Source: an uncultured Nitrospirota bacterium
Lineage (GTDB): Bacteria > Nitrospirota > Thermodesulfovibrionia > Thermodesulfovibrionales > JdFR-85
DNA: 64,000 nt
Direction: 5' to 3'
Assembly: GCA_964515925.1 (NCBI GenBank)
Contig: CAZEYP010000006.1
Span: 11,591-75,590, forward strand
The stretch's first letter is position 1. Each line of letters starts with the position of its first letter. A program made the position numbers and the translations under genes. Below, piece after piece: positions 1,116 to 64,000 of the stretch. The notes under the pieces were generated by a model. It worked only from the letters and a program-made list of their open reading frames with translations. It was not told where the DNA came from and did not search any database.

Positions 1116-3539
1116 TTATACCTTCTCAAGTTTTACAGCACAAACTTTAAAGTCAGGCTCACCTGCACCTGACCAGCTCTTGGGAACATCTACGGTAAGG
1201 AGGTTAATCAGTTTATTTTCGTCAAACCATGGAACGAATACCATACCGGGCCTTGCCCTGTCGGTGACCCATACAGGTAAGACAATCTCACCCCTTCTGG
1301 ATATGATCTTTAGTTTATCTCCACTTTTCAGGTGTAATGATTTTGCATCCTCAGGGGAGACCTCTACATAGGCCCTTGGATTCATCTCCCTTAGAAGCCT
1401 GACCCGCATGGTAAGGGTGCCTGAGTGCCAGTGCTCTATTACACGGCCGGTGTTAAGCACATAGGGATATTCGACATCGGGCATCTCGTAATCAAGCCCT
1501 GCCTTAAGTACTCTTACAATAGCCTTTCCTTCCGAGCCCTTGTGGAATGGGTGATGACCATAGTAGTTAAATGGGCCCTTGTATCCCTTCTGTTCAAGGT
1601 GCTGGTCATATAGGGTGACATAGCCGGTCTTGTATTTTCTGTTTGCCCTGCCGTAGACCTCAAGGGCGTGGGCCTTGCTGATAAACCTCTTTGCAGAACC
1701 ACGGTTTTCGAAGTCCGTACTCGGACATGGCCATTGCACTCCGCCTGCATGTGCCTTGAGCTTTTCATATGTGGCGCCCCAGAGGTCCACATCCTGTCCT
1801 CTGGTGCAGAGCCTGTATTCATTCCATGCCTCCTCTTCGGTCCCAAAACCAAGTCCATAGACCTCTTTAATACTCTTCACTTCACCGGTCATGGGATCGA
1901 TAACCCTGTAATGGGTCATTCTGCCAAGTTTTTTTGCAATTCTCTTTGCCACCTCAAGTATCTGCCAGAAGTCAGCCCTTGCATCACCGGGTGGGTCTAT
2001 TACCTTGGGAATGAACTGTGACCTCCGGTCAGTCTGACCCATTACGCCCTCTTTTTCTACCCATAGTGCTGAAGGCAGTATTACCGATGCAAGCTCTGTT
2101 GTCCTTGTAGGATAGACATCGCTTACCACAGTGAATGCCTTTTTCATGGCCTTACGGTATTTACCGGCATTGGGCAGGCTCTGACCGGGATTAGTGGTAT
2201 TTATCCATATGGCCTTGATCTTGCCCTGACTTAGACGCATAAACATATTTACTGCAGGGCCAGTGGGTTTTTGGGGTAACCATTCCACAGGAACTCCCCA
2301 GATCTCGGCGATTTCTTTACGGTGTTTTGGATTAGCCACGGCTCTGTGGCCTGGCAGTATATGAGTGAGCCCCCCCTGCTCCCTTGTTCCTCCACAGGCA
2401 TTTGGCTGACCAGTGAGTGAAAGGCTGTCACAACCTGGTTTGCCTATCTTGCCGGTTATTAGATGCAGGTTGTGAAGCAGACAGTTAAGATGCACTCCTT
2501 TGGTCCTTTGATTGATTCCCATGGTCCAGATACTGAGTGTGGAGTATCCCTTTCTGCCAAACCACAGGGCAGCTTTTCTGATATCGGATGCCGGAACTCC
2601 TACAAGACCCTCTATTTTCTCTGGCGCATAGTCCTTGAGGAATTCCCTGTAGCTATTGAAGTCTATAAATTTGCCCTTGGTTTTAAGTCCTGTCCTGAAT
2701 GTACAATACTTCAGATGCTCTTCATCAATAAGCCCCTTTTCAACGATTACATAAGCCATTGAGTTAAGAAGATACATATCATAACCTGGACGGAATTTCA
2801 GATGCAGATCTGCATACCGGGCCGTAGGTGTATACCTTGGGTCTGCCACTACGACCTTTACCCTGTCAGGGTAGGCGCTCTTACGGTCAATGACCCTCCT
2901 GAACAGCATTGGATGGTTTTCTGCTGTGTTAGAGCCTATTATGAATATGCAATCTGCTGCATCAAAGTCATCGTAAGTGCCTGCTGGCTCATCAGTGCCA
3001 AAGGTATTCAGATAACCGCCAACAGCAGAGGCCATACAGAGACGAGGATTGCCCTCTACATTGGCTGTGCCAATGATACCTTTGAAGAGTTTGTTGGCTG
3101 CAAAGGCTTCCTGTGTAGTGTTTTGTCCTGAACCATACCAGGCAACCGAATCAACTCCATATTTTTTAATGTAGTGAACAAATCTATCGGCAATCAGGTC
3201 CAGTGCCTCATCCCAGGAAACCTCCTTATAACTTCCATCAGACTGTCTGACCATTGGTTTCGTTAATCTGTCCTTGCCATACATAATATGAGGCAGGGAA
3301 TAACCCTTCATGCAGAGCCTCCCAAAGTTTACAGGACTGTCGGCATCACCCTTAACAGCCACGACCTTACCATTTTTCACACCCACCAGAACCGCACACC
3401 CTGTGCCACAGAACCTGCATTGTGACCTTTCGTACCTGATTGATGAGTCTGCCACAGCATCTGCAGGCAACCCAGCCATGGCAAGAGCCGCTGCTGCTGC
3501 GGAGGCCTTGATAAAATCTCTTCTACTAAGTCCCATCAC
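1116..3539 (-). CDS. napA: periplasmic nitrate reductase catalytic subunit NapA (molybdopterin oxidoreductase)
   Basis: 807 aa with Tat signal SRRDFIKASAAAAALA. The N-terminal Fe-S motif CRFCGTGCAVLVG..C and KGYSLPHIMYGKDRL closely resemble my memory of the E. coli NapA N-terminus. RBS GGGAGG lies upstream. Confidence 0.85.
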   Translation of the reverse strand: MMGLSRRDFIKASAAAAALAMAGLPADAVADSSIRYERSQCRFCGTGCAVLVGVKNGKVVAVKGDADSPVNFGRLCMKGYSLPHIMYGKDRLTKPMVRQSDGSYKEVSWDEALDLIADRFVHYIKKYGVDSVAWYGSGQNTTQEAFAANKLFKGIIGTANVEGNPRLCMASAVGGYLNTFGTDEPAGTYDDFDAADCIFIIGSNTAENHPMLFRRVIDRKSAYPDRVKVVVADPRYTPTARYADLHLKFRPGYDMYLLNSMAYVIVEKGLIDEEHLKYCTFRTGLKTKGKFIDFNSYREFLKDYAPEKIEGLVGVPASDIRKAALWFGRKGYSTLSIWTMGINQRTKGVHLNCLLHNLHLITGKIGKPGCDSLSLTGQPNACGGTREQGGLTHILPGHRAVANPKHRKEIAEIWGVPVEWLPQKPTGPAVNMFMRLSQGKIKAIWINTTNPGQSLPNAGKYRKAMKKAFTVVSDVYPTRTTELASVILPSALWVEKEGVMGQTDRRSQFIPKVIDPPGDARADFWQILEVAKRIAKKLGRMTHYRVIDPMTGEVKSIKEVYGLGFGTEEEAWNEYRLCTRGQDVDLWGATYEKLKAHAGGVQWPCPSTDFENRGSAKRFISKAHALEVYGRANRKYKTGYVTLYDQHLEQKGYKGPFNYYGHHPFHKGSEGKAIVRVLKAGLDYEMPDVEYPYVLNTGRVIEHWHSGTLTMRVRLLREMNPRAYVEVSPEDAKSLHLKSGDKLKIISRRGEIVLPVWVTDRARPGMVFVPWFDENKLINLLTVDVPKSWSGAGEPDFKVCAVKLEKV

Positions 3540-3655
3540 TACACCTCCCTTGTTCTCAGGCCCGGAGGCCCTGTTTTGAAAACTCTATTTTATTTTCTCA
3601 CAGCCCCTTGTAAATTGGTTATCAAATCGTGTAAATTTTTTGTAAATTTAAAAAT

Positions 3656-3755
3656 ACAGGGGGTAGCGTGTAGGGTGTAAAAAAGACAGGGTGTAGGGGG
3701 TAGCGTGTAGGGGGTAGTAAAAGACAGGGGGTAGCGTGTAGGGAGTAGGGTGTAG
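3656..3755 (+). repeat. G-tract heptamer array (three modules of A-tract + ACAGGG(G/T)GTAG(C/G)GTGTAGGG...)
   Basis: Read directly: acagggggtagcgtgtagggtgt / acagggtgtagggggtagcgtgtagggggtagt / acagggggtagcgtgtagggagtagggtgtag. These are period-7 GTAGGGN/GTAGCGT units. Confidence 0.85.
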
Positions 3756-3760
3756 TTAAG

Positions 3761-3809
3761 GAACGCGATGAACTCAATGAACGCAAAGAACGCAATTAAC
3801 GCAATAACC
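3761..3809 (+). repeat. 9-bp tandem array, 5.4 copies, unit (G/T)AAC(G/T)C(A/G)A(T/A)
   Basis: GAACGCGAT GAACTCAAT GAACGCAAA GAACGCAAT TAACGCAAT AACC. The array ends 6 nt before the AGGAGG RBS of the macro-domain gene. Confidence 0.85.
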
Positions 3810-3826
3810 AATCTCAGGAGGTGTTT

Positions 3827-4369
3827 ATGGAGTTAGTAAAAGAGGTAAAGATTGATGGTAAGGTCTTAAGACTTGTTAAGGGTGATATTACCGAAAGGGA
3901 TGTGGATGTTATTGTAAATGCAGCCAACTCTTACCTGAAGCATGGTGGTGGTGTGGCAGGTGCAATCGTTCGTAAGGGTGGGCATATCATACAGGAAGAA
4001 AGTGACAGGATTGGTTTTGTCCCTGTGGGCTCTGCGGCTATCACCACAGCAGGTCGACTACCCTGTAAGGCTGTAATCCATGCAGTTGGTCCAAGGATGG
4101 GCGAAGGTGACGAAGATAATAAACTGAAGAATGCAGTGCTGAGTAGCCTCAGGCTTGCAGCGTCAAAGGGATTCAAGAGTATTTCATTACCTGCAATAAG
4201 CTCCGGGATATTCGGATTTCCAAAGGACCGATGTGCGAAAATACTCGTTGGGGAGTCAAGAAGGTATTTGCTCGAAAACCTCGACTCTTCTGTTGAGATA
4301 GTAGAGTTCTGCATATTTGATGATGAAACGCTTGGACATTTTAAAAGAGAGTTTGATGCCCTCGGGTAG
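3827..4369 (+). CDS. macro domain protein (ADP-ribose binding / O-acetyl-ADP-ribose deacetylase family)
   Basis: MELVKEVKIDGKVLRLVKGDITERDVDVIVNAANSYLKHGGGVAGAI shows the macro-domain signature. The ORF track starts at GTG 3821, but I prefer ATG 3827 with AGGAGG (3816..3821) 5 nt upstream. Confidence 0.85.
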   Translation: MELVKEVKIDGKVLRLVKGDITERDVDVIVNAANSYLKHGGGVAGAIVRKGGHIIQEESDRIGFVPVGSAAITTAGRLPCKAVIHAVGPRMGEGDEDNKLKNAVLSSLRLAASKGFKSISLPAISSGIFGFPKDRCAKILVGESRRYLLENLDSSVEIVEFCIFDDETLGHFKREFDALG

Positions 4370-6916: not shown

Positions 6917-7053
6917 TTGATTCCTCCAGAAAAAATCGTTAAAACTAAAATACACTACACAATGGAGTTTCACCTTGAATGGAAATTTTGACCCAAACTT
7001 TCCATTAATCGTTCAAGCCCAGCGTGTAGGGTATGAGGGCATTATCATACCCT

Positions 7054-13132: not shown

Positions 13133-13174
13133 TAAATAATATACCAGTTGATGTAAATAATATACCAGTTGATG
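13133..13174. repeat. perfect 21-bp tandem duplication (TAAATAATATACCAGTTGATG x2)
   Basis: 13133..13153 is identical to 13154..13174. It lies in the divergent rpsU / membrane-protein promoter region. Confidence 0.9.
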
Positions 13175-13225
13175 AGATTATATGTCAAGAAAATATCCTG
13201 TAAATACAGGTTGTTATGGATAAAT

Positions 13226-13258
13226 ACAGGGAGTAGGGTGTAGGGAGTAGGGGGTATG
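13226..13258 (+). repeat. G-tract heptamer array (ACAGGGAGTAGGGTGTAGGGAGTAGGGGGTATGG)
   Basis: Same motif family as 3656..3755. It contains four GGG tracts separated by 4-nt loops (13229..13254). Confidence 0.85.
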
Positions 13259-13304: not shown

Positions 13305-13310
13305 TATAAT
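13305..13310 (+). promoter_or_regulatory. candidate -10 box (TATAAT) 6 nt upstream of ATG 13317; leaderless-type arrangement
   Basis: aagtTATAATcaatggATG. There is no SD between the box and the start, and the -35 is weak. Confidence 0.4.
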
Positions 13311-13316
13311 CAATGG

Positions 13317-14504
13317 ATGATTGACCTTCTAAAGGTAGCCTGTGTTTTTGTTGTAATCCTTCTTCTTTTAAGAAAAAAGATGAAGGTGGGTTATGTGCTG
13401 CTCATAGCCTCTCTGGTGCTTTATCTGTTTTACATGCCAGGGGCTATGGGTGTAAAGAGTATCATAAAAAGAACCCTCCTTTCACACATAACCCTTGTGT
13501 TGTTGATTGCACTTACTGCCATAAGGATGTTTGAGATGATACTCAGAGAAAGGCAGGTGCTTGATGGGATGATGAAAACAATGGAAAGGCTGCTCAGGCA
13601 TAAAAGGCTTGTTGTTGTATCAATGCCTCTTCTAATAGGTATGATGCCATCAGTGGGGGGTGCCTATTTCTCTGCTCCCATGGTTGATAAGGCAACCTCG
13701 GATATGGAGCTAACACCTGAGGAAAAGACCTTTGCCAATTACTGGTACAGGCATCCCTGGGAATTTGTTCTTCCACTATATCCAGGGGTGGTGCTTGCAT
13801 CTGCAATAACCTCTATTGCATTAAGAGTGCTAATTCTACACAATCTACCTTATGCGGTGGTGATGTTTCTGGTTGGATTTTATTTCATAAAGCGAATAAA
13901 GGGTAAAAACATGACAGTAAGCAGAGGGCAGAGAGGATGGGCATATTTCCTGCCGCTTATGATACTGCTTTTTCTGGTTATTGGATTAAATCTGCCTATA
14001 GAATATGCCTTGTTGATTGTTGTTACAGGTTTGTTAGCCTTTTATCGTTATAGTTTAAAGAAGATAATAAGTGTCATTAAGTATGGCCTTTCTCCAGACA
14101 TTATACTTTTGATTCTTGGTGTGGTTTGCTTCAAGGAGACCCTCGAGATAACCGGTGCAGTTCAAAATATAGGTGATTTTTTCAAACAAAACAATATACC
14201 TCTTCTGCCAGTAGTATTTTTTCTGCCATTTATCACCGGTATCCTGACAGGGATAACAGTTGGCTTTGTAAGCAGTACCTTTCCGTTGATACTGAGCCTT
14301 ACAGGTCCTGAGCCTTATCTTTTCTCACTTGCCTTTGCAGCAGGTTACGCAGGGGTACTGCTTTCTCCTGTGCATGTCTGCCTTATACTTACAAGGGAGT
14401 ACTTCTGTGCTGATGTGCTTCCTTCATACCGCAAGATTTTGCCTGCCACATTAATTGTTGTAGCTGTGGCCCTCATCAAGTATTCCCTATGGAAGTTAAT
14501 GTAG
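13317..14504 (+). CDS. polytopic integral membrane protein (resembles the DUF401 family from memory)
   Basis: 395 aa with about 10 or more hydrophobic segments and no recognisable catalytic motif. Confidence 0.5.
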   Translation: MIDLLKVACVFVVILLLLRKKMKVGYVLLIASLVLYLFYMPGAMGVKSIIKRTLLSHITLVLLIALTAIRMFEMILRERQVLDGMMKTMERLLRHKRLVVVSMPLLIGMMPSVGGAYFSAPMVDKATSDMELTPEEKTFANYWYRHPWEFVLPLYPGVVLASAITSIALRVLILHNLPYAVVMFLVGFYFIKRIKGKNMTVSRGQRGWAYFLPLMILLFLVIGLNLPIEYALLIVVTGLLAFYRYSLKKIISVIKYGLSPDIILLILGVVCFKETLEITGAVQNIGDFFKQNNIPLLPVVFFLPFITGILTGITVGFVSSTFPLILSLTGPEPYLFSLAFAAGYAGVLLSPVHVCLILTREYFCADVLPSYRKILPATLIVVAVALIKYSLWKLM

Positions 14505-21096: not shown

Positions 21097-22224
21097 TTAT
21101 TTAAATTCTAACACCCCGCTTAAGACATCTTCAACCGATTTAAGTGTGGGTTTTGCCTTCTTTGGCTCAGAGACTACCTTGAACACATTATCCGGGTCCT
21201 TTAAGCCATTTCCTGTAAGCGTGCAGACAACGGTCTCTCCTCCCTTGAAATAGCCCTGTCTGTATAGCTTAATAACTCCTGCAAGAGAAGCAGCAGAGGC
21301 AGGCTCGCAGAATACCCCCTCGGTGGAGGCAATGAGTCTGTATGCCTGGAGTATCTCTTCATCAGTTACTGCATCAATCCTGCCGCCAGACTCATCTCTT
21401 GCCTTTTCTGCCTTATGCCAGCTTGCCGGGTTGCCAATTCTTATAGCCGTGGCAATGGTCTCGGGTTTTTCGACCACCCTGCCAAGTACTATGGGGGCTG
21501 CTCCTTCGGCCTGAAAACCGAGCATTCTGGGCAGAGAGCCTATCCTTTTAGCCTTATAATACTCATTGTATCCCTGCCAGTAGGCACTAATGTTACCAGC
21601 GTTGCCAACGGGAAGGGCGTGAAAATCAGGTGCTGAGCCAAGCTGGTCGCAAACCTCAAAGGCAGCAGACTTCTGCCCCTCAAGCCTGTAAGGGTTAATG
21701 GAATTAACAAGGGTTATGGGGTATTTTTCAACCATCTCTCTTACAATCTGAAGTGCCTGGTCAAAGTTCCCCTCTATCTGTATAACCTCAGCCCCATGAA
21801 TGAGGGCCTGAACCAGCTTCCCAAGCGCAATCTTTCCTTCGGGTATAAGCACAATTGCCTTTATCCCTGCACGGGCTGCGTAGGCTGCTGCTGATGCAGA
21901 GGTGTTGCCAGTGGATGCGCATATTACAGCTCTGGCGCCTTCTTCAACAGCCTTTGATATGGCAAGGGTCATTCCGCGGTCTTTGAAAGAGCCTGTAGGG
22001 TTTGCTCCATCAAACTTGAAGTATAGATTAAGGTCAAGGCCGATCCTGTTTTTAAGATTTACGGCATTAATAAGTGGGGTGTTTCCTTCATAAAGGGTAA
22101 TTACGGGGGTTTTTTCTGTGACCGGCAGGAACTCTCTGTATTCATTGAGAATTCCTCTCCAGCGTCGGGGCATTCGGTCGTCATCAGACGACTGAGTTGA
22201 CAATTGCGTCTCACTCTGTGTCAT
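21097..22224 (-). CDS. thrC: threonine synthase
   Basis: 375 aa with the PLP lysine motif [12 protein letters not shown] and [14 protein letters not shown]. Confidence 0.85.
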
Positions 22225-22763: not shown

Positions 22764-22800
22764 TTGTTACCCCCTTTCTTTTGTTTAAATTTAAACTTAA

Positions 22801-22873
22801 GGGTGTAGGGTGTAGGGGGTAGCGTGTAGTGATTAATTTTTTTACTACTCCCTACTCCCTACACCCTACTCCC
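22801..22873. repeat. inverted pair of 30-nt heptamer arrays (G-rich 22801..22830, C-rich 22844..22873) forming a long imperfect hairpin
   Basis: gggtgtagggtgtagggggtagcgtgtagt / 13-nt A/T loop / actactccctactccctacaccctactccc. I count 26 of 30 positions as complementary. Confidence 0.85.
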
Positions 22874-22877
22874 TTTT

Positions 22878-24336: not shown

Positions 24337-26043
24337 TCAATCCATCAAGGAATCCTTTAGCCCTTCTATTTTCTTGATGACATAATCAACCGCCTCTTCA
24401 ACATCCACCTTTACCCGTTCTTTGGTCTTACGGTCTTTTATCTCCAGCTTGTTTTCCTTAAGGCCACGCTCCCCTACCACTACCTGAAGGGGGATGCCAA
24501 TGAGATCGGCATCCTTGAATTTCACGCCTGCCCGTTCGGAGCGGTCATCAATCAATGTATCAATGCCTTTCTTGCTAAGTTCCGAGTAGAGTTTTTCAGA
24601 TACCTCCTTGGTTTTTTCATGATTCATATTAAGTGGCAGTATAATTACTGAAAAGGGTGCAATGGTGATGGGCCAGATTATTCCGTCTTCGTCGTGGCTC
24701 TGCTCAACTGCTGCTGCAGCCACTCTTGCAGGTCCTATACCGTAACTGCCCATAATTATTGGGTGCTCCTTACCCTGCGCATCAAGGAATGTTGCGCCAA
24801 GTGGTTCTGAGTACTTGGTGCCAAGCTTGAAGATATTTCCAATCTCAATAACACGCTCAATTCTCAGGGGGCTGCCGCATTTGGGACATCCATCACCGTC
24901 TCTGGCAATATGAAGGTCAGCCCATTCAGCATTGAAATGTTTACCTGGCCTTATACCCCTTACATGGTAGTCCTTTTTATTTGCACCACTTATATAAACT
25001 CCATCTTTCAGGAACTCATCGGCAATTATTCTTATTCCTTCATGCCCCTGAGGGCCTATATATCCTGCTTCAACCCCCAGGATTTCTTCTATCTCGTCTT
25101 TATGTGCAGGTCTGAAGGGGCCAATTATCCTTTCAAGTTTTCTCTCCTGAAGGTCCTGATCGCCCCTCAGAAGCACAAGGACAGGTTTCCCGTCTGCTAT
25201 ATAAAGGAGGCTTTTTATAAAATGTGAAGGCTCAACACCTAAGAACTCCGCTACCTCCTGAATGGTTCTTTTCTCTGGTGTATGAACCTCTTCAAATTCC
25301 CAATCATTAAAATTGACCTCTGCTGAGATGCTCTTTGCAAGCTCCACATTGGCTGAGTAGCCGCAGCTGTCACAGAGTGCCACATCATCCTCTCCAGCAG
25401 GGCTTGGTGCCATAAATTCATGGGCAGTGGCACCACCCATCATGCCAGGGTCAGACTCTACCTGATAGAACTTGATACCGCATCGAGTATAGATTCTTCG
25501 GTATGCCTCAATGTGAAGCTGATAGTTCCTCTCAAGTCCTTCCTCATCAGCGTCAAAACTGTATGAGTCTTTCATGATAAACTCACGGGTTCTCATTATG
25601 CCACTTTTTGGTCTTGCCTCGTCACGGAGCTTTGTCTGAATCTGATACCAGACCTGAGGCAGATCACGGTAGGAGCGGATTTCTCTTGAGGCAAGCCAGG
25701 TCATTATCTCCTCGTGGGTCATTCCAAGACACATGTCCCTGCCAGTGCGGTCCTTAAGCCTGAACATCTCATCGCCTATCTCAAACCAGCGGCCTGTTTT
25801 CTGCCATATCTCTGCAGGGTGAAGTACAGTCATAAATATCTCCTGAGCTCCAATACGGTTCATCTCTTCACGGATAATCTGGTTTATCTTCTGCATCACC
25901 CTCCAGCCAAGCGGGAGAAAGATATAAAGACCAGAGGCAAGCTGTCTTATGTAACCTGCCCTTAGCAGCAACTTATGGCTTATTGCCTCTGCATCAGCAG
26001 GGGTTTCTCTTAATGTTGGGATAAAGGCCCTGGAAAACCTCAT
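24337..26043 (-). CDS. proS: prolyl-tRNA synthetase
   Basis: The start is moved to MRFSRAFIPTLRETPADAE (ATG 26043, GGAGG upstream). It has class II motifs and a bacterial-type insertion domain. Confidence 0.92.
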   Translation of the reverse strand: MRFSRAFIPTLRETPADAEAISHKLLLRAGYIRQLASGLYIFLPLGWRVMQKINQIIREEMNRIGAQEIFMTVLHPAEIWQKTGRWFEIGDEMFRLKDRTGRDMCLGMTHEEIMTWLASREIRSYRDLPQVWYQIQTKLRDEARPKSGIMRTREFIMKDSYSFDADEEGLERNYQLHIEAYRRIYTRCGIKFYQVESDPGMMGGATAHEFMAPSPAGEDDVALCDSCGYSANVELAKSISAEVNFNDWEFEEVHTPEKRTIQEVAEFLGVEPSHFIKSLLYIADGKPVLVLLRGDQDLQERKLERIIGPFRPAHKDEIEEILGVEAGYIGPQGHEGIRIIADEFLKDGVYISGANKKDYHVRGIRPGKHFNAEWADLHIARDGDGCPKCGSPLRIERVIEIGNIFKLGTKYSEPLGATFLDAQGKEHPIIMGSYGIGPARVAAAAVEQSHDEDGIIWPITIAPFSVIILPLNMNHEKTKEVSEKLYSELSKKGIDTLIDDRSERAGVKFKDADLIGIPLQVVVGERGLKENKLEIKDRKTKERVKVDVEEAVDYVIKKIEGLKDSLMD

Positions 26044-26114
26044 AGTACCTCCACATCTATTAATCGTTCTGTATTTTAAGTGCTTGCTCAAAGAGCTGTC
26101 AATGTATCATTGAA

Positions 26115-27209
26115 TCAGCTCAAAACCTTCAATAAAACCCCTTCGGTCACCCTGTCTGATATTACCACTTTCCCGATTCTTTCAGGTAGCACAAAACGTA
26201 GCCTGCCTGAAACTGCCTTTTTATCAATCTGCATAGCCCTTATCATCTGCTCTGGATTAAGGGACTCTTCAAGTTTTGAAGTCATGCCGTATGATGAAAT
26301 GAGGCTTCTGAGCCTTTTGACCGCTTCGGTGTCTATCAATTCCATTTCCCTGGCAATCTCTGCCTCATATACCATACCCATTGAAACCGCCTCACCATGC
26401 AGATATCTGGTGTAGCCTGTTAGGGTTTCTATAGCATGCCCCACAGTGTGTCCATAATTGAGTATTGCCCTGAGCCCTGATTCCCTCTCGTCTTTTGAGA
26501 CCACCTCTGCCTTTATCTCACAACACCGTTTAATCATCTGGACAAGCAGGTCCTGTTTCTGTGAGAGTATCCCTTCACGGTTTTCTTCAAGAAAGCTAAA
26601 GAACTCCTCATCCCATATAACACCGTACTTTATAACCTCAGCCATTCCAGCAAGAAACTCTCTTTCAGGCAGCGTCTTAAGGCTCTCTACATCTATCCAG
26701 ACAAGCCGTGGCTGGTAGAAGGTGCCGATCATGTTCTTGCCCAGTGGATGGTTAACACCGGTTTTTCCGCCTACAGAGCTATCAACTTGCGAAAGAAGAG
26801 TGGTTGGTATCTGAACGCAACCTATTCCTCTCATATAAACAGAGGCAACGAAACCTGCAATGTCACCGATTACACCACCGCCAAGTGCAAATATAGCAGA
26901 CTTTCTGTCAAGCCCGAAAGCAAGTAGCCTGCCAAGGATGTAGTAGGCCCATCCAAATTCCTTGTACTCCTCTCCGTCAGGGATTAAGACAACCTGCACA
27001 TCAAGCCCTGAAGAGCGTAAAGAGCCAAGCACCAGATCACCGTAGAGTTTATATACAGTGGGATTACTTATGAGGGCAGCCTTTGTAGAAAAATTAAATT
27101 TTCTTACCTCCTCCCCGAGGCCCTTAAGTATATTATGCCCTATTGTTATGTTGTAACTTCTCTTACCTAAATCAACCTTAAGGGTTTCCATAACAGAAAA
27201 TTCTAACAT
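26115..27209 (-). CDS. aroB: 3-dehydroquinate synthase
   Basis: 364 aa with GGGVIGDIAGFVAS and the metal site HTVGHAIE. The start is ambiguous (ATG 27209 or 27191). Confidence 0.87.
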   Translation of the reverse strand: MLEFSVMETLKVDLGKRSYNITIGHNILKGLGEEVRKFNFSTKAALISNPTVYKLYGDLVLGSLRSSGLDVQVVLIPDGEEYKEFGWAYYILGRLLAFGLDRKSAIFALGGGVIGDIAGFVASVYMRGIGCVQIPTTLLSQVDSSVGGKTGVNHPLGKNMIGTFYQPRLVWIDVESLKTLPEREFLAGMAEVIKYGVIWDEEFFSFLEENREGILSQKQDLLVQMIKRCCEIKAEVVSKDERESGLRAILNYGHTVGHAIETLTGYTRYLHGEAVSMGMVYEAEIAREMELIDTEAVKRLRSLISSYGMTSKLEESLNPEQMIRAMQIDKKAVSGRLRFVLPERIGKVVISDRVTEGVLLKVLS

Positions 27210-27321
27210 TAAAGTATATTTTTTTGCATATCTACTGCTATAATATTAATCCAATTCAGGTATTATTAATTTGAAATCCTGCTGAAGACTGCAGGAAGGT
27301 TATTGCCTAAACATAAGGAAA

Positions 27322-28182
27322 ATGCTTGCTAAACGAATCATACCCTGCCTTGATGTCCGTGATGGCCGGGTGGTCAAGGGTGTTAATTTCGTAAACATCC
27401 GTGATGCCGGCGACCCTGTGGAAAATGCCATATACTATGATGAACAGGGTGCCGATGAGCTTGTATTCCTTGACATTACAGCCTCCCATGAAAAGAGAAA
27501 GATTATCCTTGATGTGGTAGAAAAAACAGCAGTAGATGTGTTTATGCCCCTTACCGTGGGCGGTGGAATAAAGAGCCTGGAGGACATCAGGGACCTTCTT
27601 AATGCAGGTTGCGATAAGGTCTCTATTAACACTACCGCAATTCGGGATCCTGAATTTATCCAGAAGGCTTCTCAGCGTTTTGGCTCCCAGTGTATAGTGG
27701 TTGCCATAGATGCAAAGCGGGTTCATGACTCAAGGTTTGAAATTGATGCTGAAAGAGATGTGCCGGAGTGGCTAAAAGACAACAGAGAACTTCAATACCT
27801 GCTTATACCTGAAGAGGGAAAGCGGGAGGATAAACTCTGGGAGATATTTACACATGGTGGAAGAAGGCCAAGGGGGATAGATGCAGTAAAGTGGGCCCGT
27901 TTCATGGAAGAGCTCGGTGCAGGTGAGATACTCCTTACTTCAATGGACAGGGACGGCACAAAAGATGGTTATGACCTTGAGCTTACAAGGGCTGTTTCAG
28001 AGGCTGTGGGCATACCAGTGATTGCCTCTGGTGGTGCTGGAACGCTTCAGCATCTTTACGAGGCACTGACAGAAGGAAAGGCAGATGCTGCCCTTGCGGC
28101 AAGCATTTTCCACTACCGTGAATATACTATTGAAGAGGCAAAGCGGTTTCTGAAGGAAAGGGGAGTGGAGGTAAGACTTTAA
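27322..28182 (+). CDS. hisF: imidazole glycerol phosphate synthase cyclase subunit, with an extra insertion of about 35 aa
   Basis: [20 protein letters not shown]...[14 protein letters not shown]...ASGGAG. It is 286 aa against about 253 typical. Confidence 0.9.
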
Positions 28183-28183
28183 G

Positions 28184-28225
28184 GATTTCAGATTTCAGAT
28201 TTTTGATTTAAGATTTTGAATTTTA
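28184..28225 (+). repeat. heptamer array GATTTNN x6
   Basis: GATTTCA GATTTCA GATTTTT GATTTAA GATTTTG AATTTTA, immediately after the hisF stop. Confidence 0.85.
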
Positions 28226-28237
28226 TATATAAAATTC
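28218..28237. repeat. perfect 20-bp A/T palindrome GAATTTTATATATAAAATTC
   Basis: Read directly; it is self-complementary over 20 of 20 positions. Confidence 0.9.
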
Positions 28238-28240
28238 AAA

Positions 28241-28284
28241 TAACTCAATAAACGCATGAACTCAATTAACGCAATAAACGCAAA
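28241..28284 (+). repeat. 9-bp tandem array (about 5 copies) of the AAC(G/T)CAAT family upstream of tkt
   Basis: TAACTCAAT AAACGCAT GAACTCAAT TAACGCAAT AAACGCAAA, followed by cagGGAGGctttATG (tkt). Confidence 0.85.
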
Positions 28285-28296
28285 CAGGGAGGCTTT

Positions 28297-30282
28297 ATGA
28301 AGATTGACGAAATCTGTATCAATACCATCAGGTTTCTTGCAGTAGATGCTGTGCAGAAGGCAAATTCAGGACATCCTGGCATGCCAATGGGTGATGCAGC
28401 AATGGCATATGTGCTCTGGCATAAGTTCTTAAAACATAATCCCAGGAATCCCCGGTGGTTTAACCGTGATAGATTCGTGCTTTCAGCAGGCCATGGCTCC
28501 ATGTTGCTTTACAGCCTTTTGTACCTCACAGGTTATCCGCTTACACTCAAGGATATAAAAAACTTCCGTCAGTGGGGCTCTAAGACACCAGGGCATCCTG
28601 AGCACGACCCTGATGTGGGAGTAGAAACCACCACAGGACCCCTTGGGCAGGGTTTTTCCACTGGAGTTGGAATGGCAATAGCCGAGAGGTATCTGAGTGA
28701 GTATTTCAACCGTAGAGGGTTCCCTGTGGTTGATTACAACATATACGCCATCTGTAGTGATGGTGACCTGATGGAGGGAGTGGCTTCAGAGGCTGCCTCG
28801 CTTGCAGGACATCTGGGGCTTGGAAAGATTGTATATCTTTATTCAGACAACAGAATTACCATTGAGGGTTCCACAGACCTTGCGTTTACTGAGGATGTTG
28901 AGAAGAGGTTTCTTGCCTATGGCTGGCATGTCCAGAAGGTTGACGGTAATGACCTCAAGGCAATTGAGAAGGCCATAAGGGCAGCAAAGAAAGAGAAGAA
29001 GAGACCCTCACTTATTATTGCACGCACCCATATTGCCTTTGGAAGCCCCAACAAACAGGACACACCTGAGTCGCACGGTGCACCCCTTGGAGAGGAGGAG
29101 ATAAGGCTTACAAAAAAGAATCTTGGATGGCCGACTCGCAAGTTCTATGTGCCTAAGGATGCCCTCAGACACATGAGGAAGGCAGTTCAGAAGGGAAGGG
29201 TAGAGGAAAAGAAATGGAAGGATTTGATGAAGAGATACAAAAAGACCTATCCTGAACTCCATGAAAGGTTTGTTCAGTTTACAGAGGGTCTGCTTCCAGA
29301 TGGCTGGGATAGGGACCTGCCTGCTTTTTCACCAGAGGATGGCCCATTAGCCACCCGCTCAGCATCGGGCAAGGTGCTTAATGTCCTTGCCGAAAGGGTA
29401 GAAAACCTTATAGGTGGTTCTGCTGACCTTGCGCCTTCTAACAATACATATCTGAAGAAGTATCCTGACTTTGGTGTGAAGAAGGCTGGAAGGAACCTTC
29501 ACTTCGGGGTAAGGGAGCATGCAATGGGTGCTGCCCTTAATGGAATGGCGCTTAATGGTGGAGTGATTCCTTACGGTGGAACATTTCTCATCTTTTCTGA
29601 TTATATGCGTCCATCCATCAGGCTTGCTGCAATGATGCGTCAGCATGTGGTCTATGTGTTTACCCACGATTCAATTGGTCTTGGTGAGGATGGCCCAACT
29701 CATCAGCCGGTTGAGCAACTTTCCTCACTTCGTCTGATTCCCAACTTCACCGAGATACGACCTGCTGATGCCAACGAGGCAAGAGAGGCCTGGAGGATAG
29801 CACTTAAGCACAGGAATGGCCCGGTGGCACTTATTCTTACAAGGCAGAAGGTGCCGGTGATTGATAGAAAAAAATACGCATCTGAAAAGGGCATACACAA
29901 AGGTGCATATATACTGGCTGATACAAAGGGTACACCTGATATTATCCTTATAGCCTCTGGCTCTGAGGTTCACCTTGCCCTTGAAGCCTTCGAGGCTTTA
30001 AAAGCAAAGGGTGTGAATGCAAGGGTGGTGAACATGGCATCCTTCAGACTCTTTGAGGAACAGCCACAGTCTTATAAAAACAGGGTGATTCCTCCACAGG
30101 TAACAAAGAGGCTTGCAATAGAAGCAGGTGCCAGCCTCTGCTGGTATAAGTATGTGGGGGCTCAGGGAGATGTAATAGGTGTTGACCGTTTCGGAGCCTC
30201 TGCGCCATACAGGGTGATATTTGAAAAATACGGCTTTACCGTGGAAAATGTGATAAAGAGGGCATTGAAGTTGCTTGGGTAG
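28297..30282 (+). CDS. tkt: transketolase
   Basis: 661 aa with [10 protein letters not shown] and the ThDP motif GDGDLMEGV. Confidence 0.92.
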
Positions 30283-31149: not shown

Positions 31150-31156
31150 GTATTCT

Positions 31157-31184
31157 AAATCCGAAATCTAAAATCCTAAATTTA
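31157..31184 (-). repeat. heptamer array (NNGATTT on the minus strand; AAATCNN x4 on plus) abutting the EamA gene start
   Basis: aaatccg aaatcta aaatcct aaattta on the plus strand, which is the sense orientation for the minus-strand gene starting at 31149. Confidence 0.8.
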
Positions 31185-31390
31185 TCATCTTCCTTTTGCC
31201 AATACACTAATAACCAATATACCAAATATACTAACTCCCTCTAACCCTTTAATATAGAAGTAAACATGCTGATTGTCTTATGTTTTAAATTGCAGATATA
31301 GTAATATGATAGAATAATCTACAAATTATTTATAAGTGAAACTCTCTGACAGCCCAGATAACATGGCAGAACAATACGAAGGAGACGAAT

Positions 31391-32920: not shown

Positions 32921-33061
32921 GAGCCTGAAATGCTATCCTGTTTAGCTGAAAAAGGTTCTTTTTTTGATACATTGAAGGTCATCCTTTCCTCAGACTCCAG
33001 ATAATGATTTAAATGATTACAGGAATACCTTGATTGTTAAGGGGGATCTCCCAACTTCCGA

Positions 33062-33163
33062 CGTTAGAAATCGTTAGAAATAGAAATACTCGTTAGAAAT
33101 ACGTTAGAAATAGCCGCGTAAGAAATAGACATTAGAAATAGAAAGTTAGAAAATTATAGAAAA
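33062..33163 (+). repeat. array of about 8 (C)GTTAGAAAT-type units at 10-15 bp spacing
   Basis: cgttagaaat x2 adjacent, then cgttagaaat, cgttagaaat, cgtaagaaat, ttagaaat, gttagaaaa and tagaaaa. Confidence 0.85.
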
Positions 33164-33170
33164 TTAGTGA

Positions 33171-33211
33171 CTGTTGACACCTGTTGACAGTTATGTTGAC
33201 GGTCTGTTGAC
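33171..33211 (+). repeat. four (C/A)TGTTGAC units at 10-13 bp spacing
   Basis: ctgttgac (33171), ctgttgac (33181), atgttgac (33193) and ctgttgac (33204). Confidence 0.85.
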
Positions 33212-33263
33212 GGTAATTTTAAGGGGTTTGGAGAGATAACTTATTGATTTTAAAGAAAACATC

Positions 33264-40851: not shown

Positions 40852-40879
40852 TTCCCTACACGCTACCCGCTACACCCTA
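40852..40879 (-). repeat. G-tract heptamer element (G-rich on the minus strand) filling the rnpB-IMPase spacer
   Basis: The minus strand reads ttagggtgtagcgggtagcgtgtagggaagaaATG. It belongs to the same family as 3656..3755. Confidence 0.8.
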
Positions 40880-40886
40880 ATTTATT

Positions 40887-41315
40887 GGGCAGGCAATAAG
40901 CCGGGTTCTGTACTGGTGGTCATTTATCTGAGGCAGAGGATTGCTCCCCTGCTCATGCGGCCTACCCGTTCCGTACAATCAGGCGGGCCACCTTCTGGGC
41001 GGAACCTATTTGGCCTTGCTCCGGACAGGGTTTGCCGTGCCTGGAGTGTCGCCACCCCAGCGGTGGGCTCTTACCCCACCTTTTCACCCTTACCCCGCAC
41101 CCAGTTGGTTTTCAGAAGGGTGTCTTTTCCAATCTGGCAATAAAGATTAGTGCTATAACCTTCTTTTTACTCCTGAAACCCAACTGGGTGCGGGGCGGTC
41201 TGTTTTCTGTGGCACTTTCCCTTGGCTTACGCTAGGTGGCTGTTAGCCACTGTCCTGCCCTGCGGAGCCCGGACTTTCCTCTGGAGTATATACTCCAGCG
41301 ACCACCTGCCTGCCC
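40887..41315 (-). ncRNA. rnpB: RNase P RNA (bacterial type A) with extended P12
   Basis: The minus strand contains GAGGAAAGTCCGGGCTCC, GGTAAGGGTGAAAAGGTGGGGTAAGAGCCCACC, GGAGCAAGGCCAAATAGG and ACAGAACCCGGCTTAT. P1 pairs GGGCAGGCA with TGCCTGCCC. The ends are approximate to within a few nt. Confidence 0.9.
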
Positions 41316-41431
41316 TTTATATTTTGTGGTTAAACAAGAACAAATTAATAAGCCTGGGGCTTACCCAGGGAGTTTCATTTATTTTAGCATTTTCCTGTTG
41401 TTTAATATGGGGGAGTAAAAAACAACAATAT

Positions 41432-41459
41432 AAATCACAAATCTAAAATCTTACATCTT
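41432..41459 (-). repeat. heptamer array (AAATCNN x4 on plus) straddling the rnhA stop, upstream of rnpB
   Basis: aaatcac aaatcta aaatctt acatctt. Confidence 0.7.
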
Positions 41460-62269: not shown

Positions 62270-63225
62270 TAGTACCTGAAGATATTATCAGGTTAATACA
62301 AAAAGAGAATCGTTTTCTTATTGCTTCCCATCTTAACCCCGAAGGTGATGCCATTGGTACAACCCTGGCACTTTATCTTGCACTTAAAGACAGGGGAAAG
62401 GATGTGATTGCATACAATGTAGATGGCGTTCCCTATTTATACGAATTCCTTCCACACTCAGGGGCTTTGATTAAAGACCTTGATAGTGTAACTACCGAAG
62501 AATACATACTTATGCTCGTTGATTGTAATGAACCTGAGAGGGCATCGGTTGAAGAAAAGAGATTTAAAAGTATCGTGGTTATAGATCACCATCTCACGCA
62601 GAAGGAGTTTGGCGATATCAGGTGGATAGAGTCTCGAGCACCTGCTACAGGTATAATGGCATATCATTTGATTAAAGCTCTTGGTATTGAAATCAGCAGG
62701 GACATGGCTGTAAATCTTTACACTGCAATATCCATTGACACTGGTACATTCCGTTACGACAATACCACATCTGAAACCCTGAGGGTGGCTGCAGAACTGA
62801 TAGACAGAGGGGCTGACCCTGCAGAGATTGCAATAAGACTTTACGAATCCTGGACACACAACAGGTTTCAGCTTCTTGTCAGGATGCTTCAAACCCTTGA
62901 GATAATAGATGCTGGACAGTGTAAGATAGCGATTACATACATAACATTGGATATGTTTAGACAGACAGGCACAACAGAGGCAGATACTGAAAACTTTTCA
63001 AATTTTGCCCGTATGATTGACGATGTTGATGTCTCGGTGATGTTCAGAGAGACAGAGCCTAAGAAATGGAAGGCAAGTATGAGGGGGAAAGGCAGGGTAA
63101 ATCTTGCCCGGGTAGCATCTGAACTTGGAGGGGGTGGACATAGAAATGCAGCCGGTTTCAGGGCTGATGGAAGCCTTGAGACTCTGAAGAGGATGTTAAT
63201 TGAGACAATGAGGCAGGGAGTATAG
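62266..63225 (+). CDS. nrnA: DHH/DHHA1 phosphoesterase (NrnA-type oligoribonuclease / pAp phosphatase)
   Basis: 319 aa with the DHH motif VIDHH and the DHHA1 motif GGGGHRNAAG. Confidence 0.8.
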   Translation: MIVPEDIIRLIQKENRFLIASHLNPEGDAIGTTLALYLALKDRGKDVIAYNVDGVPYLYEFLPHSGALIKDLDSVTTEEYILMLVDCNEPERASVEEKRFKSIVVIDHHLTQKEFGDIRWIESRAPATGIMAYHLIKALGIEISRDMAVNLYTAISIDTGTFRYDNTTSETLRVAAELIDRGADPAEIAIRLYESWTHNRFQLLVRMLQTLEIIDAGQCKIAITYITLDMFRQTGTTEADTENFSNFARMIDDVDVSVMFRETEPKKWKASMRGKGRVNLARVASELGGGGHRNAAGFRADGSLETLKRMLIETMRQGV

Positions 63226-63230
63226 AATTA

Positions 63231-63296
63231 GGGAGTAGGTGGTAAAAAAGACAGGGTGTAGGGTGTAGCGGGTAGCGTGTAGGGAGTAGGGTGTAG
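63231..63296 (+). repeat. G-tract heptamer array (second full copy of the composite element)
   Basis: gggagtaggtggtaaaaaagacagggtgtagggtgtagcgggtagcgtgtagggagtagggtgtag. Confidence 0.85.
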
Positions 63297-63301
63297 TTAA
63301 G

Positions 63302-63370
63302 GAACGCGATGAACTCAATGAACGCAATTAACGCAAAGAACTCAAATAACGCAAATAACGCAATTAACGG
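63302..63370 (+). repeat. 9-bp tandem array, 7.6 copies
   Basis: GAACGCGAT GAACTCAAT GAACGCAAT TAACGCAAA GAACTCAAA TAACGCAAA TAACGCAAT TAACGG. Confidence 0.85.
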
Positions 63371-64000
63371 AGTTATAAATCTATACAAGCCCCCGGATAT
63401 CACATCCCATAAGGCTGTTAAGAAGGTACAGGGCATTCTTGGGGCAAAAAAGGCAGGCCATGCGGGCACCCTTGATCCCTTTGCCGAAGGGGTGTTGCTT
63501 GTCTGCATAAACAGTGCTACCCGCATTGTAGAGTTTCTCATTGACCTAAAAAAGGAATACATTGTAGAGATACAGCTTGGAATAGAAACCGATACCTTTG
63601 ATATCACAGGTAATACAGTCAACGAAAAGGATCCCTCGCATGTTACTGAAGAGCAACTAATAGATGTTTTCAGTAATTTCAGAGGTGAAATATTACAGAC
63701 ACCACCAGTGTATTCGGCTATAAAAAAAGGAGGTGTTCCTCTTTATAAACTTGCAAGAAAGGGTATTACTGTAGAACCTGAACCAAGGCGTGTGTATATT
63801 GAAGAGCTAAAACTCTTAAATTTTAATACACCTTATGTTATAATTTCAGTCAAATGTTCAAAGGGAACCTATGTGAGGTCCTTAGTGAATGATATAGGGA
63901 GACAGTTAGAGGTGGGAGCAGTTGTGAAGTCATTAAAGAGAACTGCTGTGGGTAACTTTAGGGCTGAAGAATCTGTAAGCCTTAGTGAGCTTGAAGCAGG
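63309..64000 (+). CDS. truB: tRNA pseudouridine-55 synthase TruB (partial; runs off window end); start codon lies inside the 9-mer array
   Basis: Not in the ORF track because it is open at the window edge. My translation reads [65 protein letters not shown] (catalytic Asp motif GTLDP). The only in-frame ATGs upstream of NGVINLYKP are 63309 (AAGGA 5 nt upstream) and 63318. Confidence 0.85.
   Translation, partial: [230 protein letters not shown]

Follow-up and report, generated by a model that had tools for sequence, protein, structure and literature searches.

The window analyzed here, a 64,000-nt stretch of the genome of an uncultured Nitrospirota bacterium (contig CAZEYP010000006.1; positions are counted from its first letter), carries tandem arrays in the 290-nt spacer between napA and a macro-domain gene (3537 to 3826). 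The gene on the left encodes a NapA-type molybdopterin enzyme and has NapD and ferredoxin-type neighbors. The gene on the right (3827 to 4369, plus strand) encodes a macro-domain protein (PF01661), whose named relatives are from Nitrospirota metagenome-assembled genomes (MAGs) and which is 77% identical to the macro protein of Dissulfurispira thermophila. The first 110 nt of the spacer are nonrepetitive, and the arrays follow. An earlier note, made from the sequence alone, had described them as 7-base and 9-base tandem repeats, and Tandem Repeats Finder returned both periods.

The heptamer array (F1, unit GTAGSGN; 3650 to 3755, plus strand) consists of three modules of ∼38 nt (3650 to 3679, 3680 to 3719, and 3720 to 3755), each of which runs from an A-tract through ACAGGGN into three to four GTAGSGN heptamers. 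This layout appears in the Tandem Repeats Finder output as period 7 at 3658 to 3755 and as a higher-order period of 38 at 3661 to 3756 (2.6 copies, 84% matches). Period 9 was reported at 3761 to 3805 (5.0 copies), within an A/C-rich array of about five nonamers (F2, unit GAACGCAAT; 3761 to 3809, plus strand). Where the two arrays meet, the junction TTAAGGAACGCGATG (3756 to 3770, plus strand) carries a Shine-Dalgarno-like AAGGA (3758 to 3762) 5 nt ahead of an ATG (3768 to 3770), and it falls inside a 58-nt block that is identical in the leader of truB. A putative array-encoded upstream open reading frame (uORF) of 22 codons (MNSMNAKNAINAITNLRRCLWS; 3768 to 3836, plus strand) starts at this ATG and ends 7 nt past the macro start codon, with a TAG (3834 to 3836) that comes 5 bases after the last base of the macro ATG (3829); equivalents of this uORF are present in the relatives L257 and L258. 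The macro gene has its own Shine-Dalgarno sequence, AGGAGG (3816 to 3821, plus strand), ahead of its ATG at 3827.

On the napA side, the arrays begin directly 3′ of a conserved regulatory block (3587 to 3647), which serves here as context only. The block, TTGTAAATTGGTTATCAAATCGTGTAAATTTTTTGTAAA, is kept in all five relatives whether arrays are present or not, and it contains the predicted napA promoter on the minus strand (TTTACA-16-TAAAAT, 3614 to 3587; 10/12 promoter match). Three direct TGTAAA(TT) repeats, common to all relatives, lie in the block at 3609 to 3647; one of them is the napA −35 element read on the other strand, and a regulator of the nap operon may bind at these three candidate sites. 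The napA leader also has a small hairpin (3558 to 3576, minus strand), placed after the promoter and before the ribosome-binding site of napA, whose sequence varies while its pairing is kept in the window and at the orthologous positions in L244, L246, L257, and L258 (arms CAGGCC..GGCCCTG, CAGACC..GGTCTG, CAGGT..ACCTG, and GAGGCT..AGCCTC). From this comparison, the hairpin is likely a conserved structure of the napA leader, unrelated to the arrays. A 73-codon open reading frame (ORF) on the C-rich strand of the heptamer array (3590 to 3811, minus strand) is an artifact, because the complement of F1 has no stop codons.

Arrays at other loci of the window

Two degenerate patterns, each two and a half units long, were used to search the window. 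The pattern GTAGSGNGTAGSGNGTAG, with at most one mismatch, gave 17 matches versus 0.00 expected from shuffles, and the pattern AACKCRANNAACKCRA gave 14 versus 0.19; all of them fell at loci that the earlier note had named. The second full copy lies between an nrnA-like gene and truB. Its F1 array has two modules (63229 to 63296, plus strand) and starts 3 to 5 nt past the nrnA-like stop codon; the truB leader that follows (63299 to 63371, plus strand) holds AAGGA at 63299 to 63303, an ATG at 63309, and ∼7.6 copies of F2 in frame with truB. F1 stands alone at 13221 to 13258 (plus strand; four GGG tracts), in the divergent spacer between rpsU and DUF401 and 58 nt before the DUF401 ATG. Another F1 array (40852 to 40880, minus strand) fills the gap from the 3′ end of RNase P RNA (40881) to an inositol-monophosphatase-family gene, and its last unit, GTAGGGAAGAA-ATG, doubles as a ribosome-binding region. 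Between a PALP gene and thiS, two F1 arrays (22801 to 22829 and 22845 to 22874) form an inverted pair (22796 to 22877, minus strand) that is predicted to fold into one long hairpin in the transcript (−47.5 kcal/mol, z −8.5); it is one of two such pairs found, the other being at 21402 to 21473 in L249. Ahead of tkt, an F2 array of about five copies (28233 to 28300, plus strand) contains a 14-codon uORF whose TGA overlaps the tkt ATG (ATGA).

A further family, the GATTTNN heptamers (F3), had been missed by the earlier note and behaves like F1 and F2. One F3 array (28184 to 28224, plus strand) starts 1 nt past the stop codon of a hisF-like gene. A second (31155 to 31182, within 31155 to 31250, minus strand) abuts the start codon of an EamA gene, with an 8-mer array and an F1 remnant upstream of it on the mRNA strand, and a short third one (41430 to 41450, minus strand) starts at the stop codon of an RNase H-like gene, upstream of RNase P RNA. 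The multilocus family that the earlier note had proposed is borne out by the full copy (63229 to 63370), the heptamer-only copies (13226 to 13258 and, on the minus strand, 40852 to 40880), the 9-mer-only copy (28233 to 28285), and the inverted pair. We do not retain its fragment at 7017 to 7036, which has ∼1.5 units, was missed by the pattern search, and may be due to chance.

The genes that follow the arrays (macro, DUF401, ThiS, transketolase, EamA, inositol-monophosphatase family, and TruB) are unrelated. The C-strand units TACTCCC and TACCCCC, next to napA, resemble NarL heptamers (TACYYMT), but a nap-specific role is disfavored because the arrays spread to unrelated genes. Neither napA nor the macro gene is specifically regulated by the focal element.

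Some observations concern the surroundings of these arrays. RNase P RNA, of bacterial class A (40881 to 41317, minus strand; 314 bits), has the GATTT array ∼110 nt upstream of its 5′ end and the heptamer array starting one base past its 3′ end; as a literature lead only, short tandemly repeated repetitive (STRR) heptamers of cyanobacteria are said to occur inside the RNase P RNA gene. In the rpsU/DUF401 spacer, an exact 21-nt tandem duplication (TAAATAATATACCAGTTGATG, two copies at 13133 to 13174) is present as a single copy in the sister genome, GCA_054013935.1, and could be an operator or other regulatory site. The same spacer has a TATAAT (13305 to 13319) 9 nt ahead of the DUF401 ATG, which is conserved in the sister genome at a distance of 6 nt and suggests that the mRNA has no leader or a very short one. 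Between a TP_methylase gene and tRNA-Asp there is another cluster of short-period arrays (33060 to 33215); after several GTTAGAAAT(A/C)-type units, it has CTGTTGAC(A/G)G in four copies, which amount to four tandem −35-like TTGAC boxes.

Position and orientation of the arrays

We then asked on which strand the arrays lie relative to the neighboring genes, counting orthologous sites once and taking the unpaired arrays for co-directional spacers. In all eight independent co-directional spacers, the arrays were on the mRNA-sense strand (hisF-like to tkt; nrnA to truB; RNase P RNA to the inositol-monophosphatase-family gene; RNase H-like to RNase P RNA; napD to a cytochrome gene; napH-like to napD; PALP to thiS in the sister genome; and one spacer in a more distant Nitrospirae MAG). 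In the four divergent spacers, the array was closer each time to the gene to which it is sense, and the combined count is 12/12 informative loci (binomial P ∼2e-4). Co-directional arrays start 0 to 15 nt past the stop codon of the preceding gene, or past the 3′ end of RNase P RNA, and they end a few to ∼20 nt before the Shine-Dalgarno sequence or directly at the start codon; the F1 array at 40852 and the F3 array at 31155 abut the ATG. The earlier note had stated that the elements, at six of its seven loci, are sense to the next gene and abut its start. The first part agrees with all 12 loci, and the second fails at 13226, which lies 58 nt from the start codon.

The cumulative GC skew of the window has its minimum at ∼26000 to 28000, where the genes change from a minus-strand to a plus-strand majority. 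The switch may be related to replication or may be no more than a gene-strand bias; no dnaA was seen. A replication-strand cause of array orientation was rejected, because array strand goes with the adjacent gene whichever side of the switch is considered. The constant placement on the mRNA strand, from stop codon to ribosome-binding site, points to a constraint at the RNA level or the translation level.

Comparison with relatives

Five same-population assemblies (L121, L122, L254, L255, and L256, from three Joint Genome Institute [JGI] metagenomes and a Logan assembly) have identical arrays at both full copies, one single-nucleotide polymorphism apart (in L122), with 99.96 to 100% identity. 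Because the same sequence was obtained in five independent assemblies, the arrays are not an assembly artifact. The short-read contigs L123 and L245 end inside elements, and one relative has a run of N in its nonamer array, since multicopy repeats disrupt assemblies. Copy-number variation, which the earlier note had proposed to look for in related strains or MAGs, was found between related genomes and not among the five same-population assemblies, a small sample; phase variation was rejected on the latter result.

At the focal spacer, every relative opens with the same conserved block, and the content that follows differs. The spacer of L246 (macro protein identity, 85%) is 144 nt long and has no arrays; 30 nt lead to the Shine-Dalgarno sequence. 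The window has 290 nt with three F1 modules and five F2 copies, and L258 (89%) has 445 nt with two F1 modules and at least 13 F2 copies, including a run of N. L257 (91%) has 382 nt made up of an F1 stub, an array of F4 heptamers (TAAATTC/TAAGCAC)n, a unique linker, a GATTT-type array, a small hairpin, and 11 copies of F2, and L244 (91%) has 481 nt with F1, F4 (TAAGTAC)n, linker, GATTT-type array, and hairpin, without F2. Similar differences are seen in the tkt leader, which across four genomes has 2, 2, 5, and 12 nonamers and 0, 4, 5, and 6 GATTTCA units. The spacer from napD to the cytochrome gene has an F3 array in four of five genomes, and overall the arrays are held at the same spacers at 75 to 91% protein identity (tkt, 4/4; truB, 3/3; napD-cytochrome F3, 4/5). 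Taken together, the sequences of five related genomes show a modular leader mosaic.

Blocks also appear to be copied between leaders. The sister genome has mosaics of ∼230 nt ahead of its macro gene and its napD that are 84% identical over 212 nt, with related copies ahead of the hisF-like gene, thiS, and DUF401. These mosaics are bracketed by small hairpins, CTGYGG-CAGGA-CCRCAG (L244 9705 to 9722, 9938 to 9955, and 4800 to 4817; L249 8940 to 8960), two copies of which differ by compensatory changes (CTGTGG/CCACAG versus CCGTG/CACGG); they may be REP-like (repetitive extragenic palindrome-like) modules of the same mosaics. In the window, the macro and truB leaders share the identical 58-nt stretch mentioned above and are 97% identical over 67 nt. 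At truB, F1 is present only in the window's genome, and the nonamers are in frame with the gene in three species. F2 is ancestral at truB, and the simplest reading is that the macro leader donated sequence to the truB leader by ectopic conversion, via the nonamer array already common to both.

The truB copy is also where an array becomes part of a protein. In the window, the nonamer array gives truB its start codon (63309) and its N-terminus MNSMNAINAKNSNNANNAIN, an (Asn-Ala-Ile)n extension. The TruB proteins of three species start with MNSMNAINAKNSNNANNAING, MNATNAINAINAING, and MSMNANNEING, and more distant TruBs start with MTKSG or MG. The stretch from the truB nonamer array to the conserved GVINLYKP has no canonical start codon, which means that translation has to include the array. 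Among the F2 arrays, that of truB is the only one for which comparison requires translation. Translation of the 9-mers at truB had been missed by the earlier note, as had module turnover, copy-number change, and copying between loci.

Structure and coding properties of the arrays

The single-orientation elements fold like shuffles (z +0.25 and +0.10) and rank within the less-structured 6 to 21% of genomic windows, and no conserved fold was found in single-orientation arrays; this supports the lack of structure that the earlier note had listed among the possible roles (unstructured A/C-rich translation enhancers). Searches of 3480 to 3900 and 63150 to 63450 gave no Rfam match at E ≤ 1, and at the gathering score the whole window gave RNase P RNA and two tRNAs only.

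Neither terminal inverted repeats nor flanking direct duplications were found at the full copies. We agree with the earlier note that the element is not a miniature inverted-repeat transposable element (MITE), a REP element, or a CRISPR array. A MITE or an element derived from an insertion sequence was rejected for its missing terminal inverted repeats and target-site duplications; REP elements and bacterial interspersed mosaic elements (BIMEs) were rejected because single-orientation copies are not palindromic folds, the inverted pair (z −8.5) being the only one that folds; and CRISPR was rejected because the units are contiguous, with no spacers. The only flanking complementarities are 9 and 11 nt long and belong to host sequence: the conserved promoter block and the part of truB that is coding. 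These short complementarities bracket both full copies (3614 to 3622 with 3804 to 3812, 9 nt and perfect; 63220 to 63230 with 63376 to 63386, 11 nt and one mismatch), with their arms just outside the arrays. Each alone is near chance expectation, and their occurrence twice is curious.

The sense strand of F1 has TAG in all three frames. Taking the canonical anti-Shine-Dalgarno sequence as given, since the 16S gene lies outside the window, 30% of the 9-mers in the focal F1 array are Shine-Dalgarno-like versus 4.4% in the background, and the fraction is 19 to 56% (5- to 12-fold enriched) in three of four F1 arrays tested, the array at 40852 not being enriched. F2 is open in the frame AAC-GCA-ATN only, trivially so because its codons begin with A or G. 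All three F2 arrays of the window hold an ATGAACTCAAT unit, with which the macro uORF, the tkt uORF, and TruB itself begin. A uORF or leader-peptide coding reading of the nonamers was rejected as evidence, because the frame is automatically open.

Opening the macro ribosome-binding site was predicted in silico to cost 7.7 kcal/mol with the array, compared to 11.8 kcal/mol when the array was deleted and 12.5 kcal/mol when it was replaced with random filler. The effect is inconsistent across leaders, since the cost is lower with the array at macro, neutral at tkt, the inositol-monophosphatase gene, and DUF401, and worse at truB. We therefore rejected ribosome-binding-site opening as a general effect of the arrays, which is supported at macro only and contradicted at truB.

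About one-third of the F1 units read GCG instead of GGG, and the arrays hold 2 to 8 GGG tracts with no preference for four units. With quadruplex energies included in ViennaRNA, a G-quadruplex was part of the minimum-energy fold in one of six leaders, that of 13226 (−20.7 versus −12.6 kcal/mol). G-quadruplex formation as the unifying feature was rejected on this count, and the G4-forming modules that the earlier note had listed among the possible roles are supported weakly or not at all as a common property.

Discussion

The arrays form a modular, dispersed, orientation-locked, fast-evolving family that is so far confined to a few related Nitrospirota genomes and that, from the sequence comparisons, appears to have changed in copy number and to have passed blocks from one leader to another. 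The explanation that we favor, with a confidence that stands midway between doubt and conviction, is that they are lineage-specific modular long simple-sequence repeats (LSSRs) that change by slippage and block transfer and make up transcribed leaders acting, if at all, on translation. The identity of the arrays is the well-supported part of it. The modules are F1 (GTAGSGN with an A-tract and ACAGGG head), F2 (GAACGCAAT nonamers), and F3 (GATTTNN heptamers), joined in sister genomes by F4 (TAARYAC heptamers), a short unique linker, and the small hairpin; a Thermodesulfovibrionia-like Nitrospirota lineage carries them in its leaders and intercistronic spacers. Replication slippage would change the unit number. 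Whole blocks would move between leaders by ectopic recombination or gene conversion, and because these events would be seeded in arrays already common to the leaders, orientation would be preserved automatically. The arrays would be transcribed within the mRNA, as many of them lie in conserved operons, and any action would be on translation. F1, with a stop codon in all three frames, would end incoming reading frames and offer a run of Shine-Dalgarno-like G-rich sites; the F1/F2 junction would supply AAGGA and AUG; and F2 would provide an unstructured A/C-rich run, open in one frame, up to the start of the gene. The open frame would lead into the gene itself (truB, with its Asn-Ala-Ile repeat) or into a short uORF that ends at the gene start (tkt and macro).

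Several points weigh against this explanation. Transcription of the arrays is deduced from operon context and position only, and the 13226 array fits a transcribed leader poorly: if the DUF401 mRNA is leaderless, the array would lie upstream of the promoter and outside the transcript. The genes downstream are functionally unrelated. L246 has no arrays at macro, and the module content differs in every genome; as arrays are missing or swapped between genomes, whatever they do is dispensable or easily replaced. Because the F2 frame is open automatically, the uORFs are no evidence of coding, and the predicted effect on ribosome-binding-site opening differs from leader to leader. The comparative sample is small (∼300 kb from six or seven genomes), and the gene assignments relied on ORF heuristics and on calls made by the tools.

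The main rival, which we regard as possible though rather doubtful, is that the arrays are neutral or selfish repeat DNA, without function, which arises by slippage and ectopic conversion and regenerates faster than it is deleted. The sense-only orientation would then come from homology-driven spread from leader to leader, or from harm done by the C-rich complement in mRNA, which could resemble an anti-Shine-Dalgarno sequence (CCCUAC/CUCCC) or, being C-rich, serve to load Rho. Module content and copy number that vary from genome to genome, arrays that are easily lost or exchanged, the relative without arrays at the focal spacer, unrelated downstream genes, the absence of a conserved fold and of an Rfam match, and the inconsistent predicted effect on ribosome-binding sites all fit neutrality, and the published GGGNATC and TAACTGA repeats are likewise without demonstrated function. 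Against it stand the sense orientation at 12/12 loci and the recruitment of an array as the truB start codon; the persistence of arrays at the same spacers at 75 to 91% protein identity, unexpected in compact genomes, argues mildly in the same direction. We think it unlikely that the arrays are a binding platform, with one site per unit, for an abundant single-strand nucleic-acid-binding protein (such as S1, a cold-shock protein, CsrA, or Hfq) or a DNA-binding protein, which would make them part of a posttranscriptional network as proposed for the TAACTGA repeats. Tandem, identical, unstructured units by start codons on the mRNA strand are what such a platform might look like, and the head motif AUACAGGGAGUA at 13221 resembles the CsrA consensus from systematic evolution of ligands by exponential enrichment (SELEX), RUACARGGAUGU, which we treat as a lead only. 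Precedent and reasoning are given by MacGregor 2015. However, only about one-third of the F1 units contain GGA, close relatives have orthologous leaders without arrays, and four unrelated unit sequences act alike, which would require several proteins or a very unspecific one.

The two remaining alternatives seem to us less plausible still. That the G-rich heptamers would fold as DNA or RNA quadruplexes modulating transcription or translation, a role put forward for GGGNATC repeats in Xanthomonas and Nostoc, is very improbable. GGG tracts with 4-nt loops, the quadruplex predicted at 13226, and G-rich sense arrays right after stop codons, as in Rehm 2015, are in its favor, but GTAGCGN units break the tracts in most arrays, the focal one included, five of six leaders have no quadruplex in their minimum-energy fold, there is no four-unit preference, and F2, F3, and F4 behave alike without G tracts. 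A mobile promoter or leader cassette, a mosaic with its own promoter that is reused ahead of unrelated genes, is hardly credible, although promoter reuse is documented in prokaryotes (PMC3575422), the same oriented block does occur ahead of unrelated genes, and weak sigma-70-like matches point toward the gene inside the A/T-rich F3 modules. We rejected a promoter inside the arrays because consensus matches were no commoner than in shuffles. Moreover, the gene strand of the F1+F2 version gave no promoter-like match, and many copies lie within conserved operons (nap; infB-rbfA-nrnA-truB), which have no need of a promoter at these places.

The kind of repeat is known, and only this variant is new. 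Heptamers are the commonest LSSRs in prokaryotes, with slippage proposed as their origin (Mrazek 2007, as cited in PMC4679880). Like LSSRs, which have units of 5 to 11 nt, the arrays of the window consist of head-to-tail 7- and 9-nt units beyond chance expectation, are dispersed as many intergenic arrays with few unit types per genome and a sporadic phylogenetic distribution, and differ in copy number at the same site between related genomes (tkt, 2, 2, 5, and 12; focal spacer, 144 to 481 nt). In LSSRs such change is attributed to slippage, and units in multiples of three are tolerated in coding sequence, as are the truB nonamers. The difference is that several unit types here occur in a fixed order with unique linkers and appear to move as blocks. 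The cyanobacterial STRR elements are also tandem heptanucleotide units dispersed in intergenic DNA, but the units here are GTAGSGN, GATTTNN, and TAARYAC and the host is a member of the Nitrospirota. STRR1 to STRR3, with units CCCCAGT, TTGGTCA, and CAACAGT, belong to heterocyst-forming cyanobacteria; the elements were described in 1990.

The closest parallels in placement come from two other repeats. TAACTGA repeats of marine Beggiatoaceae lie in forward orientation just upstream of the start codons of unrelated genes (MacGregor 2015, PMC4679880); S1, Csp, and CsrA have been suggested as binders, and the proposed translational role is unproven (PMC4679880). They share with our arrays the forward heptamers upstream of start codons and, as in F1, stops in all three frames, which follow from a stop codon within a unit of 7 nt. 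In the Beggiatoaceae, the repeats overlap the ribosome-binding site or take its place, whereas our arrays are usually followed by a normal Shine-Dalgarno sequence, have another unit, are mosaic, and are longer (100 to 250 nt); Tandem Repeats Finder listed no TAACTGA array for the window. The GGGNATC repeats found in Xanthomonas and Nostoc are G-rich, quadruplex-forming, and intergenic, and they are transcribed in Xanthomonas (Rehm et al. 2015, PMC4692102). Shared features are G-rich heptamers on the sense strand right after stop codons, variation in length and sequence between close relatives at the same spacers, unrelated downstream genes, and no established function. Here, however, there is no four-unit preference and the G tracts are often broken (GCG). 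The published repeats have their G-rich strand antisense when they lie upstream of ORFs, and they are under-represented in divergent spacers, whereas ours is sense upstream and occurs in divergent spacers too.

Enterobacterial BIME/REP elements are also modular mosaics in transcribed intergenic spacers with many dispersed copies, and the inverted F1 pair resembles a REP pair; the units here, in contrast, are direct tandem repeats instead of palindromes, and most copies are without secondary structure. No transposase of the REP-associated tyrosine transposase (RAYT) type was seen, though no systematic search was made. Contingency loci in 5′ untranslated regions (UTRs), such as Moraxella uspA2 AGAT and the Haemophilus simple-sequence repeats (SSRs), likewise have tandem repeats from promoter to start, whose number could tune expression, but copy number here does not vary within the population and the genes are housekeeping genes, not surface antigens.

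In pattern scans of genome and metagenome contigs, which are biased by the query, the matches listed included arrays of (GGGAGTA)n, (GGGTGTA)n, and (AGTAGCG)n in many phyla, an indication of how widespread the class is; the hosts were cyanobacteria, Verrucomicrobiota, Acidobacteriota, Gemmatimonadota, Planctomycetota, and others. Among these listed matches, G-rich sense arrays typically lie just past stop codons, and many inverted pairs form hairpins. High-GC metagenome contigs often have (GGGAGTA)n as perfect inverted pairs right after stop codons, with a terminator- or REP-like look, and Opitutaceae and Akkermansia have (AGTAGCG)n with the C-rich strand running into the ATG, opposite to the lineage of the window (example contigs for the two patterns: L139, L154, L166, L171, L202, L213, L222, L231; L042, L066, L085, L089, L090, L111, L117). 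Some listed matches with TTTAGGG runs look like eukaryotic telomeric DNA. The exact unit strings returned nothing relevant in the searched literature. The earlier note, which did not recognize the family, was right about the units; their kind, the heptamer-dominated LSSR, has been described, and the class thus counts as known under the criterion that the note itself had set for refutation. What is new here is the units themselves, the fixed-order multiunit mosaic with linkers, the evidence that blocks are transferred from leader to leader, an orientation ahead of genes that is strictly sense, and a nonamer array that has been recruited to supply a start codon and an N-terminal repeat.

The arrays have practical consequences, as they break short-read assemblies and mislead gene callers into spurious C-rich-strand ORFs, uORFs called as genes, and extended N termini. 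Array-encoded uORFs called as genes were seen at L249 9888 to 10004 (38 amino acids) and L257 9906 to 10013 (35 amino acids). They also offer a natural experiment, in which the same spacers occur without arrays, with differing module sets, and with 2 to 12 copies, and one array has visibly become the start of the essential-type gene truB. A bolder proposal, which we advance tentatively and think improbable, is that these are oriented, self-propagating leader cassettes of an undescribed kind that spread by conversion and have been selected as a genome-wide layer of translational control in Thermodesulfovibrionia, each bringing a three-frame stop barrier, a Shine-Dalgarno sequence, a start codon, and an unstructured open frame. 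If this is true, the leader cassettes would rewire translation starts, giving uORFs to macro and tkt and a new N terminus to TruB.

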